Shown piece after piece: positions 4,392 through 60,729 of a stretch of 60,791 nt of DNA. The DNA comes from an uncultured Gammaproteobacteria bacterium (GTDB taxonomy: Bacteria > Patescibacteriota > Patescibacteriia > UBA1558 > 2-01-FULL-52-15): assembly GCA_964540995.1 (NCBI GenBank), contig CAZIOU010000005.1:1-60791 (forward strand), written 5' to 3'. The notes beneath the pieces were generated by a model that worked only from the letters and a program-made list of their open reading frames with translations, ran no database searches and was not told the DNA's origin. The position numbers and the translations under genes were made by a program. The first letter of the stretch is position 1. Every line of letters begins with the position of its first letter.

Positions 4392-4547
4392 CTGTCTTTG
4401 CGAGAAATCCTTTGGCCTTCTGGTCGAAGGATTTCGCGGCAACCTAGCCTATCTGATGTCACACAATCATCGGGTGACTTCTATTGTGATAAACTGAAGT
4501 AATTTCAAGGGGATTGCTTCCCGCGTCAAACGCGGTCGCAATGACAG
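4392..4547 (+). mobile_element. MITE-like intergenic repeat, copy 1 (156 bp)
   Basis: Terminal inverted repeat CTGTCTTTGCGA...TCGCAATGACAG with internal hairpins (cgagaaatcctt/aaggatttcgcg; cgcg-tcaaa-cgcg). It aligns along its length with 9339-9490 (reverse orientation) and partly with 30636-30725 and 60606-60729. Confidence 0.8.
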
Positions 4548-8402: not shown

Positions 8403-9293
8403 CTATGCTGATCCAAGACTTATACGCCCCAATATGTAGTCAGCACACTGCTGCAAGTTGGTAGTCTGATCACCCAATTTCTGCGTTAGGGTCATAACTT
8501 TCTGATACTCCTCTTGCGCCTGATGTCGCGCTTCTTCCATCGTGACAACTGATACATAGGTGGCCTTCTCATGCTGAGCATCAGTACCTACCCCCTTACC
8601 CATCATTTCCTTCGTACCAGTGACATTGAGGATATCGTCAACAATTTGAAATAATACTCCCAGATGTTCTGCATACTCTGTCAGTACAGCCAACTTCTGA
8701 TCGTCTACTCCAGCACACAATGCCCCCATACGCACACTTGCTCGGATCAGAGCGCCCGTCTTGGCACGGTGCATAGCACGCACATCATCAAGCGTCAGTT
8801 GCTGTCCTTCGCCTTGCATATCCTGCATCTGTCCCCAGACCATGCCAGCCGGGCCAGCACCGAGAGCCAACTCCTCTACCAAGCGGACTCTGATATCAGC
8901 TGATAATGATGCCTGACTTAATAATTGAAAAGCAAACGTTAATAATCCATCGCCCGCCAGAATCGCTGTAGCTTCGTCGAACTGTTTGTGATTGGTCGGC
9001 TGACCGCGTCGAAGATCATCATCATCCATAGCCGGCAGATCATCATGAATCAATGAATAGGTATGCAGACATTCCACCGCTGCGGCCACCGGCATGATTG
9101 ATTGCAAATCACTACCACCACATGCCTCGAAACTAGCAAAAAGCAGCAACGGCCGAAACCGCTTGCCGCCAGCCAACAAACTGTAACGCATAGCTTCACC
9201 CAATTTCCCTGGGAAATCAGGACCTTGCGCCATCGTCTGCAGATAATGATTTAATTGCGCCGTATGCTGTTGGATGAAATCTTCGAAGGTCAT
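8403..9293 (-). CDS. Polyprenyl diphosphate synthase (FPP/GGPP synthase family)
   Basis: First Asp-rich motif LIHDDLPAMDDDDLRRG and second motif FQIVDDILN. ATG at 9293 (MTFEDFIQQ) is preferred over 9329. Confidence 0.85.
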   Translation of the reverse strand: MTFEDFIQQHTAQLNHYLQTMAQGPDFPGKLGEAMRYSLLAGGKRFRPLLLFASFEACGGSDLQSIMPVAAAVECLHTYSLIHDDLPAMDDDDLRRGQPTNHKQFDEATAILAGDGLLTFAFQLLSQASLSADIRVRLVEELALGAGPAGMVWGQMQDMQGEGQQLTLDDVRAMHRAKTGALIRASVRMGALCAGVDDQKLAVLTEYAEHLGVLFQIVDDILNVTGTKEMMGKGVGTDAQHEKATYVSVVTMEEARHQAQEEYQKVMTLTQKLGDQTTNLQQCADYILGRISLGSA

Positions 9294-9338: not shown

Positions 9339-9490
9339 CTGTCATTGCGAACCCGCCTCGGGGAAGCAATCCCCTTGAAATTGCTGCGAATTTATCAAAA
9401 TAGTAGACCCAATGATTGAGTGACATCGGACAGGCTGGATTGCCGCGTCACCCTTTGACCAGAAGACCAAGGGATTCCTCACAATGACAG
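9339..9490 (-). mobile_element. MITE-like intergenic repeat, copy 2 (152 bp, inverted relative to copy 1)
   Basis: It starts CTGTCATTGCGA and ends CACAATGACAG. The internal ggggaagcaatcccc, gtgacatcggacaggctgg and accagaag segments are the reverse complement of copy 1 segments. Confidence 0.8.
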
Positions 9491-11549: not shown

Positions 11550-11756
11550 TTAGGGTCTAAAATAGCTTAATTTAAGCCAATCTTAGCCGTATTTTAACTT
11601 CTGAAGTATAGCACTATTTGGGGCTAGAAACAAGGGACTTTTACTACTAATTAATCATGCCTGACGAGCCAACAAATTTAGCTTACTGCATTTACATTAG
11701 GGCTAATACTAGTTACTATTAAGTGGACTTAAAGCTAGTCATGAAAATTTAAAACT

Positions 11757-12398
11757 ATGAAAAAAAGAGTTATTCACCAAAAATTGCCAATTATTTTCGC
11801 TATCATTATCGTAACGCTAGCTATAATTAGTCTACGGACAACTCAAGAAAATATCCGACTTCGACAGTTAATCAATAACCCTAATTCTGCCCAACAGTCG
11901 GCAGTTAATCGTTACCCGCTAATTCAGGATTACCTACCCCAAGGCCTGACCAAAAATACATTTAACTATCCCGAAGATGGCCTAGAATTTTCCTTCCCAG
12001 CCAATCTAGCCCTAATGAGCGAAGATTGTAGTGGTAATTATCAAGCAGGTTCAGCGCTTGTAAAATGCCAAAACTTCAGTGGTGCCAAGGTAACCATGCA
12101 ATTCCTAGCTGGAAATTTCAACCCCAACTCCAATCCACTAGATTCTATTGCCTCTGCTAGCTCATCAGTGAAGGCAACTACTACAACGATTGACGGACGA
12201 ATCTGGAACCTTGAATGGCGCCGCGGTGGTCCTGGTTGTGATGGTCCAAAACCAACAGGTTGCGATGATTTGATATTATATGCTTACACTTTTAAAGGTG
12301 ACAGTGCGTATATTCTCAGTGATCATAATATTACTTCAACCAACGACTCTTCAGCTGAACTTCTGAAAAAGATACTAGCCACGTTTAAGGTGATGTAA
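11757..12398 (+). CDS. Hypothetical membrane-anchored/secreted protein
   Basis: N-terminal TM/signal anchor (LPIIFAIIIVTLAIISL) and a Cys-containing extracytoplasmic part. No SD, AT-rich core-type upstream region. No family recognised. Confidence 0.5.
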   Translation: MKKRVIHQKLPIIFAIIIVTLAIISLRTTQENIRLRQLINNPNSAQQSAVNRYPLIQDYLPQGLTKNTFNYPEDGLEFSFPANLALMSEDCSGNYQAGSALVKCQNFSGAKVTMQFLAGNFNPNSNPLDSIASASSSVKATTTTIDGRIWNLEWRRGGPGCDGPKPTGCDDLILYAYTFKGDSAYILSDHNITSTNDSSAELLKKILATFKVM

Positions 12399-12497
12399 AA
12401 TGATCAACCAATCCGATTTCTATTGTGACGAGATTCTAAGTGGCGCGACCCCCATTACAGTTGAAGATGAAATAGTAGTTTTGATTCGTTAAGTAAA

Positions 12498-12528
12498 GAA
12501 GCCTACTACCCTTAAGGTAATAGGCTTC
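12498..12528. terminator. Bidirectional stem-loop between convergent ORFs
   Basis: gaagccta (12498-12505) pairs with taggcttc (12521-12528), with an extended inner stem. T-rich sequence follows on the minus strand (tttactt). Confidence 0.55.
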
Positions 12529-12532
12529 TGGT

Positions 12533-12706
12533 TTAGCCGACTTCTGGATTTGGCTTCTCGGAATAGATCAGGACCGTGCCTGATTCAGTCTTTCCAAGAA
12601 CTTTCTGAATCGTTTCAGATAGAGCTTCCATCAGCTGACTTTTCTCTGTTTCTGTCAGTACTTTGTTGACTGCCAGATCGACAGAGAATTTTACCCCCTT
12701 TTCCAT
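12533..12706 (-). CDS. Small hypothetical protein, 57 aa (below the ORF-track cutoff)
   Basis: Own translation: MEKGVKFSVDLAVNKVLTETEKSQLMEALSETIQKVLGKTESGTVLIYSEKPNPEVG. A perfect AGGAGG lies 6 nt upstream of the ATG and a terminator hairpin lies downstream. It faintly resembles a tautomerase-like beta-alpha-beta unit but lacks Pro1. Confidence 0.5.
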   Translation of the reverse strand: MEKGVKFSVDLAVNKVLTETEKSQLMEALSETIQKVLGKTESGTVLIYSEKPNPEVG

Positions 12707-12916
12707 ATAAACCTCCTGTTCACGATCAGATCCTCCCCTGCTTGTCCGCAGTTATGACACGCGACAGCCACTTGTACGCCCAGTCGGTCGACTTGAATAA
12801 CACGTAGAAAAAGAAAGGCGCCAGCATCGTGTCGGTTGAGAACGGACGGCGGAGCGATATATTAACCGCTCCATACGAAATAGTCGCAAAATGGCGATAA
12901 AATGAGCTATTTTTAT

Positions 12917-12945
12917 ATAATAGCATATATATCTATATTTGTCAA
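12917..12945 (-). promoter_or_regulatory. Sigma70-type promoter TTGACA-17-TATTAT
   Basis: -35 at 12945-12940 and -10 at 12922-12917 on the minus strand. It would give a ~200-nt leader before the 57-aa ORF. Confidence 0.6.
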
Positions 12946-12978
12946 TATAATGAACATATTTAATCTATTTCTCTCGTA

Positions 12979-13007
12979 TTGCATTTGAGCTTGCTTTGAA
13001 ATACTAT
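12979..13007 (+). promoter_or_regulatory. Sigma70-type promoter TTGCAT-17-TACTAT
   Basis: -35 at 12979-12984 and -10 at 13002-13007, about 45 nt upstream of the ATG at 13054. Confidence 0.5.
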
Positions 13008-13053
13008 AGGTACGAAGTTAGTAACGTTCCTTTAACTTTCAAGGAGGTCAACC

Positions 13054-13398
13054 ATGGCTGGCAGAATGCCTCAGTGGACACATCTAGTGGCCGATAAGTA
13101 TGAGGCTGGTAACGAAAGTCCCGTCTCACAGCTCATTCTTGATGATCTCGATGTCATCGATGAGTTTCAGTGGCTGATCATGGACACTTTGAATTCTGAA
13201 GTTAAGTCGGTAGCTCCCGATATGAAGCAGCGCAATCGGTATGAACTACATACCACCGATGAGAAGGGTAGATTTCACGACATTACTGTCTATGAAGATC
13301 TAATCTGGCTCAATCTGGGACACAGCGACAACACAGATTGGACAGCCGACCCCGACGGTACGGCCTGGAAATTCCTCATGGAACGTTCAGTACAATAA
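13054..13398 (+). CDS. Hypothetical protein, 114 aa (orphan)
   Basis: AAGGAGG lies 6 nt upstream of the ATG, and a GC stem-loop terminator follows immediately. No recognisable motif. Confidence 0.6.
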   Translation: MAGRMPQWTHLVADKYEAGNESPVSQLILDDLDVIDEFQWLIMDTLNSEVKSVAPDMKQRNRYELHTTDEKGRFHDITVYEDLIWLNLGHSDNTDWTADPDGTAWKFLMERSVQ

Positions 13399-13404
13399 TA
13401 CACA

Positions 13405-13430
13405 GGAGCCTCTTCGGAGGCTCCTTTTCT
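13405..13430 (+). terminator. Intrinsic terminator ggagcctc-ttcg-gaggctcc + TTTT
   Basis: Perfect 8-bp stem, tetraloop and T-run. It is a near-identical copy of the element at 14587-14616. Confidence 0.8.
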
Positions 13431-13573
13431 ATAATAGCCGAATAAAGACCCACCCGGATAAACCAGGTGTGTCGTTGTAGTCTCGCGAAGAGACAGTTAG
13501 AGAGAAGAAATTGGATGATACATCGACAACAACGAATATGATACTTCGAGGAATTGAGATAACTATAAATAAC

Positions 13574-13603
13574 AAAGCCGCTGGTATTTACCTGCGGCTT
13601 TTT
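13574..13603. terminator. Bidirectional intrinsic terminator
   Basis: aaagccgc (13574-13581) pairs with gcggcttt (13594-13601), flanked by an A-run and a T-run. It lies downstream of the minus-strand 67-aa ORF. Confidence 0.7.
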
Positions 13604-13626
13604 AAACGACACATCCTCCTTGTTCA

Positions 13627-13830
13627 TTACCATTCAAACTCGTCATTGATGATCCCCGGTTGATCAAGAGGAATTTCTTCCGTATTATCAATGATACACG
13701 CAGAGTGATCGCCCTCTCGCTCTTTCAACATCCGCTCTGCTTCCTCACTGGTGCTTGCTAAGACAAAGGATAATGCTGGGCGATACGAAAAACCCAATTC
13801 TCCGCGCCAGTTGATTTTGAAAAGCTTCAT
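13627..13830 (-). CDS. Small hypothetical protein, 67 aa (orphan, acidic C-terminus)
   Basis: AAGGAGGG lies 5 nt upstream of the ATG, with its own TTGACA promoter and a terminator. Confidence 0.6.
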   Translation of the reverse strand: MKLFKINWRGELGFSYRPALSFVLASTSEEAERMLKEREGDHSACIIDNTEEIPLDQPGIINDEFEW

Positions 13831-13878
13831 GTCGCCCTCCTTGAAGAAAGGAACCGTGTCTAATCTAGATAATATATT

Positions 13879-13907
13879 ATTTTATAATATAAACTATCTT
13901 TTGTCAA
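13879..13907 (-). promoter_or_regulatory. Sigma70-type promoter TTGACA-17-TAAAAT
   Basis: -35 at 13907-13902 and -10 at 13884-13879. The heptamer TTGTCAA also reads TTGTCA on the plus strand (13901-13906), followed 17-18 nt later by ATATTA/TATTAG, so this is a possible back-to-back divergent promoter pair. Confidence 0.6.
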
Positions 13908-14062
13908 GGCCAATCTGTATTACATATTAGACACCCATTCTTCTACAAAATAGTGTAATTAAGCCCTTCAACTATTGATTGACTTCTCCCCCTACCCGAT
14001 GTAAGGTTGGGCCGAAACCAACCGTTACCGTCCTTTCACATAACGCTTATCAGGAGGATGTC

Positions 14063-14566
14063 ATGAGCGAATTTCAGCATCTCTATGTTGAAGTAGGCGA
14101 TCTACGAATACTACAGCAACTTATTCGACTGTATATCCACGAAACTTTCGTAATTCACCAGGACAAGCCGAAAATCATGGTAGGAATACTGATCTGGGAT
14201 CCAAGCGCCGACCCACTGCCACGGTTGCCTTGGACTATTCGGGCGCAGCCAGAACCACTGTTTCCCCTCCTGCTTATTGATTGGGCTCGAATATCAGATC
14301 AAAAACCCAATGACCAGACGTGGTACAAGCTAACCAAAGAACCAACCTACATTCTGCGTGATACCGTCGGTTATTCAGCGCTGGCCCAACTCGAAAACCA
14401 ACTCGGTCATTATCTCAGTCTTCACGATGGCGTATGGGATAAAGCCTGGAGCTCCGTCCCAAAACCCGACTGTGGCAGCAGCATCGAACTAGGATTTAGC
14501 TTGAGTGCTGGCTACTTTAATGGTCCACTAGTCATCGGAAGGCGCTGGATGGAATATCACGAGTAG
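14063..14566 (+). CDS. Hypothetical protein, 167 aa (orphan)
   Basis: The internal ATG at 14063 is preceded by CAGGAGGA. The track start at 13979 has no SD. Two terminators follow. Confidence 0.6.
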   Translation: MSEFQHLYVEVGDLRILQQLIRLYIHETFVIHQDKPKIMVGILIWDPSADPLPRLPWTIRAQPEPLFPLLLIDWARISDQKPNDQTWYKLTKEPTYILRDTVGYSALAQLENQLGHYLSLHDGVWDKAWSSVPKPDCGSSIELGFSLSAGYFNGPLVIGRRWMEYHE

Positions 14567-14586
14567 ACAGACTACTCCGACACACA

Positions 14587-14616
14587 GGAGCCTCTTCGGG
14601 GGCTCCTATTCTATTT
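14587..14616 (+). terminator. Intrinsic terminator ggagcctc-ttcg-ggggctcc
   Basis: It shares ~30 nt (acacaggagcctcttcgg.ggctcct.ttcta) with the terminator at 13401-13432. Confidence 0.7.
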
Positions 14617-14640
14617 GACTCAACACAAGTTAATATATAG

Positions 14641-14680
14641 AAGAGTCGCCAGGCAGAAGCCACAGCGACTCTTATTTTGT
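14641..14680. terminator. Second stem-loop between convergent ORFs
   Basis: aagagtcgc (14641-14649) pairs with gcgactctt (14665-14673), followed by attttgt. Confidence 0.6.
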
Positions 14681-14718
14681 CTTAAACGAATCTAAGCATC
14701 ACGAAACCGCAAAACTCT

Positions 14719-15207
14719 TCACATCCGTGAGGGCAACTCGATCTGCTTCATCACCTCAATCGGAGGAAGGTCGAGAATTGCCACATCATTATCATAGAGA
14801 ATATAGGAGACCCAGATTGTCCGACCCTTCCCTTTGGTATCGAAGAAACCTCTATTTGACTTCCACGGTACGAAACAGCCGACACCAACATCCAATCGAA
14901 ACTCTGTTCCCATACCAGCCATGAAATAACTCAACACATCACTGCCATTCATGTGCCTCATGTCTTGGATGACCCGCTTCACGTGCGCTGCCTCATCGGG
15001 ATCGCAATAGTCATCCGGGACCGACAAGGCAACGCGACGAGTCAGGTTATCCGTTTGACGCAGAGTCCAGATAATCACCCTCGTGGCCAAATCTGACGCA
15101 TCGACCGAATAGGTGACGAACTGTTCCAGTGCCTGCATCTGCCGATCGGACATGCGAGGCGGTATATAGACCTGATCTTGACCTCTGACCCAAGGGCGCC
15201 AAGGCAT
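14719..15207 (-). CDS. Hypothetical protein, 162 aa (orphan)
   Basis: The ATG at 15207 is preceded by GGAGG at 5 nt, which makes it the preferred start over the ATG at 15219 (whose own codons supply that GGAGG). It has its own TTGACA promoter. No motif recognised. Confidence 0.6.
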   Translation of the reverse strand: MPWRPWVRGQDQVYIPPRMSDRQMQALEQFVTYSVDASDLATRVIIWTLRQTDNLTRRVALSVPDDYCDPDEAAHVKRVIQDMRHMNGSDVLSYFMAGMGTEFRLDVGVGCFVPWKSNRGFFDTKGKGRTIWVSYILYDNDVAILDLPPIEVMKQIELPSRM

Positions 15208-15258
15208 CGAAACCTCCATTGTGGGTGTGAATAGAAAAGAACTAGGAAATAACTAACT

Positions 15259-15287
15259 ACCATAGCCAAATTAAAAAGCTATGTCAA
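15259..15287 (-). promoter_or_regulatory. Sigma70-type promoter TTGACA-17-TATGGT
   Basis: -35 at 15287-15282 and -10 at 15264-15259, immediately downstream of the SET-domain gene. Confidence 0.55.
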
Positions 15288-15311
15288 CTAATTGTTTGGT
15301 GCGAGCCTCAG

Positions 15312-15782
15312 CTAAGGTCTTCCGTATTTCTTCACCAACCAAGCCGAAACATAGCCTCGGTATTTACGCCTCGTTGCTAGCGGCATATTACGATAAGCAC
15401 CGATCTTGCCCCGACAGCTAACTGTACCGCACTGACATTTCATACGCCAACGCGGATGATCTTCAGTCATCTCATAATCCCACGTAATCTCCTCCCCGAC
15501 CTCAATATCGCGCATCGCCACTACTTGGAATAATTTCTTGATACCACAATTGGGTTCGCAGGAATGATTGATCAGACGCGCCACTCCCAGACAGTCTCGC
15601 CAGCGACGCGGCGCGAATTGGATGGTGTGATGATAGAGATCGTGATTCCAATGCGGATACTCCCATTCATAGATCGGCCCATCATACTCGGCTACCACTT
15701 CACCTTTCTTGATTTTACGGGAAACGAAAACTCCCCTGCCTTTGCCTCGGGAAGTTTGTACGTATATCTTCTTACTATCCAT
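15312..15782 (-). CDS. SET-domain protein (putative protein-lysine methyltransferase)
   Basis: RLINHSCEPNC, GEEITWDY and a post-SET Cys cluster CQCGTVSCRG. The start overlaps the pheT stop (TAATG). Confidence 0.8.
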   Translation of the reverse strand: MDSKKIYVQTSRGKGRGVFVSRKIKKGEVVAEYDGPIYEWEYPHWNHDLYHHTIQFAPRRWRDCLGVARLINHSCEPNCGIKKLFQVVAMRDIEVGEEITWDYEMTEDHPRWRMKCQCGTVSCRGKIGAYRNMPLATRRKYRGYVSAWLVKKYGRP

Positions 15783-30635: not shown

Positions 30636-30725
30636 CTGTCTTTGCGAGGAGTCTTGAGCTTAAGCGAATGACGACGAAGCAATCCCATTGAGATTGCTTC
30701 CCCCGCCGCGGGGTCGCAATGACAG
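30636..30725 (+). mobile_element. MITE-like repeat, copy 3 (short 90-bp form) inside the atp operon
   Basis: CTGTCTTTGCGAGG ... gaagcaatc-ccattga-gattgcttc ... ccccgccgcgggGTCGCAATGACAG. It fills most of the atpD-atpC spacer. Confidence 0.75.
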
Positions 30726-33088: not shown

Positions 33089-33139
33089 GTATAATGTATG
33101 AAGTATTAGCGTGGGTTCATTATACTTCCTACTTTATAC
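33089..33139. repeat. GTATAAAGTAG-word hairpin in the atpA-atpG spacer
   Basis: gtataatgtatgaagtat (33089-33106) pairs with atacttcctactttatac (33122-33139) at 16 of 18 positions. The right arm overlaps the atpA stop codon. Confidence 0.65.
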
Positions 33140-34637
33140 TAACTACTTCTTCAATAGCTTTCTTCAACTTCTCCTCATTATCCGCTGATAACTCTCCTGT
33201 CTTAGCAATGTCAGCTAATAAGTCAGGGTAATTGGCATCAAGATGTTCATAGAAGTTAGTTTCGAATTGCTTCAGCTGATCGACTGCTATTTGGTCCAAT
33301 AAACCATTAACCGCAGCGTAGAGAATCGTCACCTGATAATGAACTGCGATCGGTCGATATTGACCTTGTTTCAATAACTCGACGATACGCTTACCTCGGT
33401 TTAAACGGCTCTGTGTCTCTTCATCCAGATCTGATCCAAATTGCGCGAAGCCTTCTAACTCTCGGTATTGCGCCATATCCAATTTGAGACGACCAGCCAC
33501 TTTCTTCATGGCTTTGATCTGCGCAGCTGATCCGACACGAGAAACAGAAATACCGACGTTAACCGCTGGACGGAAACCCTGATAGAAAAGATCGGCTTCC
33601 AAGAAGATCTGACCATCAGTAATGGAAATAACATTGGTAGGAATATAAGCTGAGATATCGCCAGCCTGCGTCTCAATAATAGGCAGAGCGGTTAATGATC
33701 CGCCGCCATTATCAGTATTCAAGCGAGCAGAGCGCTCCAACAAACGAGAGTGTAAGTAAAAAATATCTCCTGGGTAAGCTTCCCGTCCTGGTGGGCGTCG
33801 GAGCAACAACGAGATTTGGCGGTAAGCAACAGCTTGTTTGGATAAATCATCGTACACAATCAATACGTCTTTACCTTGGTCCATGAAGTATTCGGCCATA
33901 GCACAGCCCGCATAGGGAGCGATAAATGACATAGCAGCTGGATCAGAGGCTCCGGCTACTACTACCGTGGTATAGCTCATAGCACCAGCTTCTTCTAGAC
34001 GGGCAATAATCTGAGCCACTTTGGATTCCTTCTGACTAATAGCTACATAGATACACAATACACCGCTATCTTTCTGATTGAGAATAGTATCGATAGCAAT
34101 CGCTGTCTTACCAGTCTGACGATCACCAATGATCAGCTCGCGCTGTCCGCGACCGATCGGGATCATAGCGTCAATTGATTTGATACCTGTCTGCAGTGGC
34201 ACCGTGACTGACTGACGAGTAATAACTCCAGGAGCAACTTTCTCTACGGGATTAAACCGCTTGGTTTTGAGAGCACCTTTACCATCCACCGGTTGCCCAA
34301 GAGCATTGACGACGCGACCAATAACTTCTTCGCCCACCGGAACTTCTAATACTCGGCCAGTACAGCGCACCGTATCGCCTTCACGTAATTGCAAATAGTC
34401 GCCCAAGATCATGACACCGATGACGTCTTCTTCTAAGTTCAAGACAACACCTTCAATCTTCTCACCGGAGCCGCTTTCTAACTCTACCATTTCCATAGCC
34501 AAAGCTTTGGACAAACCAGAAACCGTAGCGATGCCGTCTCCTACTTCAATAATATGTCCTACGCGTTCTTCGCTAGGAGCGAATTCCAAACCCTCAATTT
34601 TCTTCTGTAAATGTTTGATCAGATAATCGTGAGACAT
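33129..34637 (-). CDS. atpA: F1 ATP synthase alpha subunit
   Basis: GDRQTGKTA Walker [30 protein letters not shown] and ITDGQIFL. Confidence 0.97.
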
Positions 34638-53374: not shown

Positions 53375-54630
<1,256 letters not shown>

Positions 54631-54635
54631 CATAT

Positions 54636-60605: not shown

Positions 60606-60729
60606 TTTTGCGAGCCGTCAGGCGAAGCAATCTAGCCTGTCTGATGTCACCACACCACATTCCCAACCAACCACTACACCGCCATCTCAATGGGATTGCT
60701 TCCCGCCCGAGCCCGGTTCGCAATGACAG
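60606..60729 (+). mobile_element. MITE-like repeat, copy 4 (left end degenerate)
   Basis: ttttgcgag...gaagcaatctagcctgtctgatgtcac...gggattgcttcccgcccgagcccggTTCGCAATGACAG, in the same orientation as copy 1. Confidence 0.7.

Follow-up and report, generated by a model that had tools for sequence, protein, structure and literature searches.

In the 60,791-nt stretch of contig CAZIOU010000005.1 (GenBank assembly GCA_964540995.1) that was analysed here in full, hereafter the window, a small islet of orphan genes lies between gyrB on one side and the SET-pheST genes on the other, both of which are conserved. The initial annotation had placed this accessory block at 12399-15311, but the region that varies among relatives is larger, running from 11654 to 15321 (3.7 kb) and also taking in a membrane gene of 213 amino acids (aa) and a 30-codon HIT remnant. 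The five open reading frames (ORFs) that had been described in the order - + - + - are all present at their places, and the region reads from left to right as follows.

11654-12399, plus strand: left part of the variable region, which holds the gene of the 213 aa protein (11757-12398)
12400-12492, plus strand: HIT remnant of 30 codons; homology to the intact gene stops at about 12471
12533-12706, minus strand: p57, 57 aa
13054-13398, plus strand: p114, 114 aa
13627-13830, minus strand: p67, 67 aa
14063-14566, plus strand: p167, 167 aa
14719-15207, minus strand: p162, 162 aa

Relatives of the islet proteins, exact or near-exact, come from contigs of metagenomes and of metagenome-assembled genomes (MAGs), which are numbered here with an L. 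Their gyrB, pheT and SET flanks are ~94-95% identical to the window in DNA, and their housekeeping proteins are for the most part 95-99% identical. For the gap between gyrB and SET, SEVEN ARRANGEMENTS were counted, at least seven, with gap sizes from 0.3 to 3.7 kb; in the following lines the genes are given by the length of their product in aa and by their strand.

Arrangement i, the window: 213, HIT remnant, 57 (-), 114 (+), 67 (-), 167 (+), 162 (-), seven units in all
Arrangement ii, L001-L011: 251 (+), HIT (+), 76 (-), 67 (-), 167 (+)
Arrangement iii, L014 (GCA_964443305.1): ...114 (+), 67 (-), 167 (+)
Arrangement iv, L016, L017 and L012: 76 (-), 54 (+), 114 (+), 163 (+), 171 (-)
Arrangement v, L013: 80 (+), 166 (+)
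Arrangement vi, L018 and L105: 114 (+), 162' (-)
Arrangement vii, L104: a single p167-type gene of 163 aa (163', +)

The block is not syntenic across these relatives, as different gene sets occupy the space between the flanking genes, and its description as accessory is borne out: conserved core flanks enclose a gene content that differs among close relatives. The block is an ordinary flexible islet of orphan genes, variable from strain to strain. The genes do not travel in fixed company either. p114 is found without p57, homologues of p167 without p67, and p162 without p167 (arrangement vi), while p167 occurs without p162 in arrangements ii, iii, v and vii; p162 is absent from L001-L011, L013, L014 and L104. 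Synonymous divergence (dS) of gyrB, pheT and SET is 0.22-0.26 against L001 and L014, with a ratio of nonsynonymous to synonymous divergence (dN/dS) of 0.01-0.04, and dS of SET is 0.51-0.58 against L013 and L018. Even the contig with the single-gene arrangement vii has flanking genes whose proteins are 99.6% (gyrB) and 98.8% (pheT) identical to those of the window.

The gene to the left of the five ORFs had been taken for a core-type membrane protein gene, which does not hold, since its position is taken in relatives by an unrelated gene of 251 aa (L001) and the gene is missing in L104. The 213 aa protein has a hydrophobic N-terminus, a membrane anchor, is strain-specific and stands alone in its 90% cluster; the G+C content at third codon positions (GC3) of its gene, 0.346, lies under the range of the 28 long ORFs of the window, which serve as the reference for GC3 throughout. 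The 251 aa protein (L001 7718-8473, plus strand) has an R-x4-H motif (RSRIIH) and, below threshold (E = 0.0035), matches PF09509 (Hypoth_Ymh), a family which I take to belong to the HEPN superfamily. Between the 213 aa gene and p57, the ORF 12400-12492 is a pseudogene, what is left of the N-terminal part of a HIT-family gene. Its only recognisable segment agrees at 16 of 19 positions with residues 6-24 of the HIT protein that is intact in L001 (114 aa; E = 8e-10), and a stop follows codon 30. The intact gene of the relatives carries PF01230.

The initial annotation gave each of the five genes its own promoter, a strong Shine-Dalgarno (SD) sequence and a terminator. AGGAGG or GGAGG indeed lies 5-7 nt ahead of the ATG in all five, and a stable hairpin with a U-rich tail is predicted after each of the five stops (z = -6.2, -2.3, -3.4, -4.2 and -2.6 for the downstream hairpins). 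The promoters stood for p57, p67 and p162, whose sites agree with the consensus at 10-11 of 12 positions; p114 and p167 have poorer matches. The two terminators that had been called near-identical, at 13400-13432 and 14582-14614 (the copies of T in the following lines), do agree at 31 of 33 positions; the window contains no third copy, and by chance none at all would be expected. With these signals the genes look like autonomous transcription units, a view that the data support.

12497-12529, minus strand: hairpin 3 nt past the p57 stop (-22.7 kcal/mol, z = -6.2), the probable p57 terminator, with a weak U-tract
12917-12945, minus strand: promoter-like site of p57, TTGACA-17-TGnTATTAT, 11/12, ~205 nt upstream of the p57 ATG
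13400-13432, plus strand: terminator T, copy 1, with a 9-bp GC-rich stem, UUCG loop and U-tract
13445-13496, minus strand: R element, a double hairpin with the look of a minus-strand terminator, at the start of the block common to the L001-type relatives
13574-13601, minus strand: terminator hairpin proximal to p67, predicted fold
13879-13907, minus strand: promoter-like site of p67, TTGACA-17-TAAAAT, 11/12
13979-14062, plus strand: promoter and leader of p167, TTGACT-17-TAAGGT, C-rich leader, AGGAGG
14582-14614, plus strand: second copy of terminator T; relatives without p162 lose homology at 14615
14641-14673, minus strand: downstream hairpin (terminator) of p162, z = -3.4 for the 93-nt stretch
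15259-15287, minus strand: promoter-like site of p162, TTGACA-17-TATGGT, 10/12

None of the five proteins bears a recognised motif, as had been observed before: they have no significant match in Pfam, NCBIfam, PHROGs, PADLOC or PDB sequences. PADLOC-DB 2.0 contained no model that the five islet proteins, the 213 aa protein or the proteins of the relatives matched at E <= 1, searches of PDB sequences with profiles or single proteins gave nothing under E = 0.19, and scans of the Pfam, PHROGs, PADLOC and NCBIfam type returned nothing usable for the relatives' proteins and 69 members of the p162 family. The 213 aa protein and a 66 aa ORF (12726-12926, minus strand) likewise stayed below the cut-offs of Pfam, PHROGs, PADLOC and NCBIfam. 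This 66 aa ORF was rejected as a gene, its ATG lying upstream of the only good promoter-like site, and it has neither an SD sequence nor relatives. All five islet products are acidic, with isoelectric points (pI) of 4.5-5.7, and none has a hydrophobic segment. p57, p114, p67 and p167 are host-like in GC and GC3, while p162, with a GC3 of 0.589, lies over the range of the reference ORFs. Selection on p114, p167 and p162 is purifying but relaxed, since their dN/dS of 0.10-0.50 compares with 0.01-0.04 in gyrB, pheT and SET; the islet genes reach 5-30 times the housekeeping value.

The genes differ in how much company they have in the databases. p162 belongs to an uncharacterised and unnamed family of proteins of ~150 aa, which it matches over its full length with a profile built from three sequences, p162 and two relatives; among 1.84 billion proteins, 291 cluster representatives are found at E <= 1e-3 and 113 at E <= 1e-10. 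An ATG further upstream, at 15219, sits within the SD sequence, and public gene calls use the 162 aa form. Against the allele in L018, p162 shows a dS of 1.1 and 54% aa identity, with a dN/dS of 0.31. The AlphaFold2 model, from a 69-sequence alignment, is confident (predicted local distance difference test, pLDDT, 91; predicted template modelling score, pTM, 0.87), and its predicted fold has no structural neighbour in the PDB or BFVD, which makes the family a candidate for structural and functional study. The family has a polar cluster, H-D-M-x-S-x-N-G-x-T-H ... S-H-H-C-G, whose His and Cys residues are kept in the L018 allele and in most relatives; the window protein lacks the conserved His/Cys cluster and reads QDMRHMNGSDV ... 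DVGVG. A locus search with a 12-sequence alignment of p162 led to five metagenome loci. Elsewhere the genes of the family are solitary, among unrelated, chiefly housekeeping neighbours, and the members placed so far are in Patescibacteria-like contexts; one match is annotated as a Parcubacteria-group MAG, and others come from 0.1-um groundwater filtrate (L015, L099). Some proteins of the family are longer, with two to three tandem p162-like domains (P0040, P0072 and P0104), and P0072, P0104, P0126 and P0154 have a common N-terminal domain of ~140 aa (I.DGP.KW...); these four and P0040 have no Pfam match.

p167, a Trp/Pro-rich orphan, is the most constant gene of the locus, being present in six of the seven arrangements, yet only three related clusters were found among 5.8 billion sequences. 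Its alleles are deeply diverged: against L012, dS is 1.6 and aa identity 54%, and dN/dS ranges from 0.22 to 0.50. Because dS reaches 1.6 between p167 and its L012 allele and 1.1 between p162 and its L018 allele, the allele classes of both genes are far older than the strains. The p167 leader, in contrast, keeps ~90% identity between allele classes that share no more than 54% of their protein sequence (copies compared: window 13979-14062, L001 9912-10006, L012 72-165, L013 462-555, L104 1745-1840). As its alignment shows no covariation, no structure can be claimed for it; it could act as an operator or as a regulatory leader, or else anchor recombination. An AlphaFold2 model of p167, from four sequences, reached a pLDDT of 33 and was not usable for a fold search. 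With ancient allele classes behind a conserved leader, the p167 locus could be of use as a marker of strains, and balancing selection in these bacteria could be studied on it.

p67 is an acidic orphan that was seen only beside the 167-type allele, although no dedicated homologue search was made for it. Its gene and surroundings (13498-13898) are 98-100% identical to L014 and L001 against a genome background of ~95%. Within its 201 nt there are two differences from L001 and none from L014, where the background divergence is ~5%, and its dS against L001 is 0.025 compared with 0.22-0.26 for the flanking genes. Conservation of this degree suggests either that strains exchanged the segment recently or that its nucleotide sequence is constrained.

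The very acidic p114 (pI 4.5) is likewise an orphan, with only one related cluster among 5.8 billion sequences, and a dN/dS of 0.10-0.15 against L014, L016 and L017. Homology to L016 and L017 starts at 13030, just ahead of the SD sequence; these two contigs have a p114 allele of the same class, 89-91% identical in aa, behind a co-directional gene for a 54 aa membrane peptide, with no divergent p57. p57 itself, an acidic orphan from a putative gene with AGGAGG as its SD sequence, was seen in this window only (a cluster of one), again with no dedicated homologue search made, and has no viral relatives. Its 205-nt leader folds no better than shuffles (z = 0.23). Residues 17-56 of p57 give recurrent sub-threshold matches to the tautomerase superfamily (TIGR00013, E = 8e-4; PF01361, E = 0.16; PDB 2orm, E = 0.19), and its length of ~60 aa is a further likeness to this superfamily (4-oxalocrotonate tautomerase / MIF). 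As a tautomerase it was nevertheless rejected: the scores are far under the curated cut-offs (19.4 bits against 56.9, and 12.3 bits against 22), and the protein starts with MEKGV, without the catalytic N-terminal proline, Pro-1.

The positions at which DNA shared with relatives begins or ends are not scattered. Breakpoints lie at 11653 (11634 against L104), upstream of gyrB; at about 12471, inside the HIT gene; at 13443-13445, the start of the R hairpin; at 14615, directly after the tail of the second copy of T; and at 15321-15322, within the final codons of SET. In both L012 and L017, T runs straight into the p167 leader, and in L018 it is followed by an R-like hairpin and then by the 162' gene. 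Inside the 3' end of p167, identity to L012 climbs from 68% to 95%, which marks a mosaic breakpoint in a conserved coding segment. T (10 pairs, one compensated) and R (16 pairs, two compensated) are both conserved as hairpins and carry U-tracts, and I take them for intrinsic terminators of the ordinary kind; no further copies were found in the window or in the ~20-kb flanks of relatives. Since nothing else in sequence is conserved between the otherwise unrelated units, they may double as crossover points. In L001, two direct copies of R (8924-8976 and 9380-9433) flank the gene for the 76 aa protein (9001-9231, minus strand), whose product, also present in L016 (3-137), is basic and, with a CxC...CxxC spacing, looks like a zinc ribbon.

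The likely reading of these observations is that the flexible islet is a recombination hotspot of autonomous one-gene units between core genes. The hotspot would be filled with independent units, each consisting of a promoter-like site, a strong SD sequence, a short ORF and a hairpin terminator, that may be gained, lost and replaced singly among co-existing close relatives. Crossovers would fall in the terminator hairpins T and R, in the p167 leader, in gene ends (the 3' end of p167 and the last SET codons) and in the flanking core genes, and the shuffling itself would be homologous recombination between strains at short conserved segments. The truncation of the HIT gene implies that at least one event was illegitimate, namely one that presumably cut this gene and brought in the p57 segment. 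The products, which are small, acidic and apparently soluble, would most likely each act alone and not as toxin/antidote pairs, and the genes may be under strain-specific, frequency-dependent selection, for example in phage-host or symbiont-host interaction. Frequency-dependent selection would fit best because allele classes of 54% aa identity stand amid housekeeping proteins that are 95-99% identical, and because dN/dS is raised 5-30 times.

Several points weigh against this interpretation. The role of hairpins in recombination is suggested by the positions of breakpoints, and promoters and terminators are known from consensus matches and folds alone. The comparison contigs are mainly short metagenome fragments, and arrangement iv was assembled by hand from three short contigs of different runs. 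p57 has no relative, and its coding status is putative. The constant linkage of p67 to the 167-type allele could reflect a functional p67-p167 pair; the three arrangements that carry p67 count as one observation, since they have a common contiguous block (13445-14615) that is 94-95% identical. The source organism is probably an uncultivated aquatic bacterium of the Patescibacteria, an assignment drawn from gene content and from where p162 relatives occur, while the related contig L018 carries a Gammaproteobacteria label. This contig (CAZPQR010000086.1, 2.8 kb), from a MAG labelled 'uncultured Gammaproteobacteria', holds pheT, SET, 162' and p114, and its pheT and SET proteins are 95.5% and 99% identical to those of the window. 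It may be mis-binned, because gene content (a GyrB of 679 aa, DciA, ThyX) and relatives suggest a Patescibacteria-like organism.

Flexible genomic islands are hotspots of gene content between core genes in populations of aquatic bacteria, and the islet resembles them in its fixed site between core genes, with differing gene sets and diverged alleles at ~95% nucleotide identity and mostly hypothetical genes. It differs from them in being very small (0.3-3.7 kb) and made of one-gene units in alternating orientation, with junctions at shared terminator hairpins, and it contains no recognisable glycosyltransferase, surface or defence genes. Its significance is that of well-documented micro-scale variation of gene content in an uncultivated lineage. 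The kind of feature is known, the example new, and the p162 family and the highly conserved p167 leader ahead of deeply diverged alleles are points of modest interest.

Alternatively, the genes may be new single-gene factors of anti-phage defence, counter-defence or symbiosis specificity, each acting alone, and the islet a small conflict hotspot. In favour of this are genes that come and go among near-identical strains, the deep allele classes present at a single site, the sub-threshold Hypoth_Ymh match of the 251 aa protein whose gene takes the place of the 213 aa gene in relatives, and a restriction-modification methylase/Vsr pair, assigned by reading N-terminal sequences, 3-5 kb from a p162 relative in L102. 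However, PADLOC, PHROGs and Pfam give no match, the islet genes have no relatives on viral contigs, phages or plasmids, p162-family genes sit in chiefly housekeeping neighbourhoods, and the conserved His and Cys residues are lacking in the p162 of the window, so that I consider this explanation rather unlikely.

I give only a small chance to the proposal that the gap is a dedicated cassette site, at which units ending in T (plus strand) or R (minus strand) would be exchanged by a hairpin-directed, integrase-free mechanism, with p167, p162, p114 and p67 as cargo from new families, at least one of them with a new fold, that would set strain-specific outcomes of phage or episymbiont-host encounters. 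Integron cassettes are also one-gene units bounded by conserved hairpin-forming sequences (attC). The islet differs in having no integrase, promoters of its own and genes in both orientations, and its hairpins are short perfect stems with U-tracts, terminator-like and not attC; in relatives, no integrase domain is found within +/-10 kb.

In the initial annotation, the first four genes were seen as two look-alike modules of a small and a large gene in tandem, of the toxin-antitoxin, immunity or defence kind. As an explanation, two tandem-duplicated two-gene modules, each of a small antidote or regulator and a larger effector, plus a fifth gene, is very improbable. It is true that a small gene stands beside a larger one twice, with the same terminator behind both larger genes, that p67 occurs only beside the 167-type allele and its region is unusually conserved, and that the islet varies among strains, which is often so for such cassettes. 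The modules are not alike, though, as p57 and p67 are unrelated and so are p114 and p167, between which no similarity was detected, and only the terminator is common to both. The weak common stretch that had been proposed for the two small proteins found no counterpart in BLASTP, which gave no alignment of p57 with p67 even at E <= 100. Nor are the pairs kept together, since p114 of the same class occurs with the co-directional 54 aa gene and no p57, and p167 homologues occur without p67 in three arrangements (L012/L017, L013 and L104). As in type II toxin-antitoxin systems, a small acidic protein gene lies beside a larger gene and varies among strains. But three of four defining features of these systems are missing: the genes of both pairs (57/114 and 67/167) are divergent with downstream hairpins of their own, hence no operon; no toxin, antitoxin or defence model and no DNA-binding fold is matched significantly by the proteins or their relatives in Pfam, NCBIfam, PHROGs, PADLOC or, for the five proteins, PDB sequences; and of the partners only p67 is always with its 167-type gene. 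A toxin-antitoxin identity is therefore unlikely, and this tempting annotation of the islet is corrected here as wrong.

Hardly credible is the idea of a mobile-element remnant (a prophage moron block, integron-like array or degraded island) inserted between gyrB and SET, to which the resemblance of the promoter-ORF-terminator units to phage morons, the hairpins at unit boundaries, the truncated HIT gene at one junction and the atypical GC3 of p162 and the 213 aa gene might point, but which is opposed by the absence of any integrase, transposase or phage gene within +/-10 kb in the precomputed Pfam calls of relatives, by the lack of viral, phage or plasmid similarity, by units that face both ways with their own promoters, unlike integron cassettes, by hairpins that bear U-tracts as terminators do, by the host-like GC and GC3 of p57, p114, p67 and p167, and by the confinement of the units to this one site. 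Phage morons are autonomous promoter-gene-terminator units inserted between conserved genes, and each islet unit likewise has its own promoter-like site, SD sequence and terminator and may be there or missing without disturbing its neighbours; the islet differs in being chromosomal (gyrB-pheST), with no phage genes nearby. In scans of viral contigs (IMG/VR) and in blastn and tblastn searches of GenBank phages and PLSDB plasmids, the islet genes have no relatives, and the sole IMG/VR match was rejected as a chance one, to the wrong strand of a giant-virus gene.

Elsewhere in the window, whose long ORFs lie almost all on the minus strand, no tRNA genes are found, and Rfam gives no match at gathering score over the whole 60.8 kb, with two weak matches at chance level in the islet. 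A dispersed repeat of ~46 nt, consisting of GAAGCAATTTCAAGGGGATTGCTTCCC, a variable GC hairpin and GTCGCAATGACAG, occurs in four intergenic copies, of which three are downstream of minus-strand genes and the fourth is at the end of the window.

4498-4547, plus strand: copy of the ~46-nt repeat
9339-9388, minus strand: copy of the ~46-nt repeat
30675-30725, plus strand: copy of the ~46-nt repeat
60681-60729, plus strand: copy of the ~46-nt repeat

The repeat, for which Rfam gives no match, resembles a REP element or else a family of shared terminators. An AT-rich motif, CATnATACnTnCTACTTTATAC..., is present in both orientations, at 2583-2648, 33118-33146 and 54589-54631, and may be a shared leader or promoter element.

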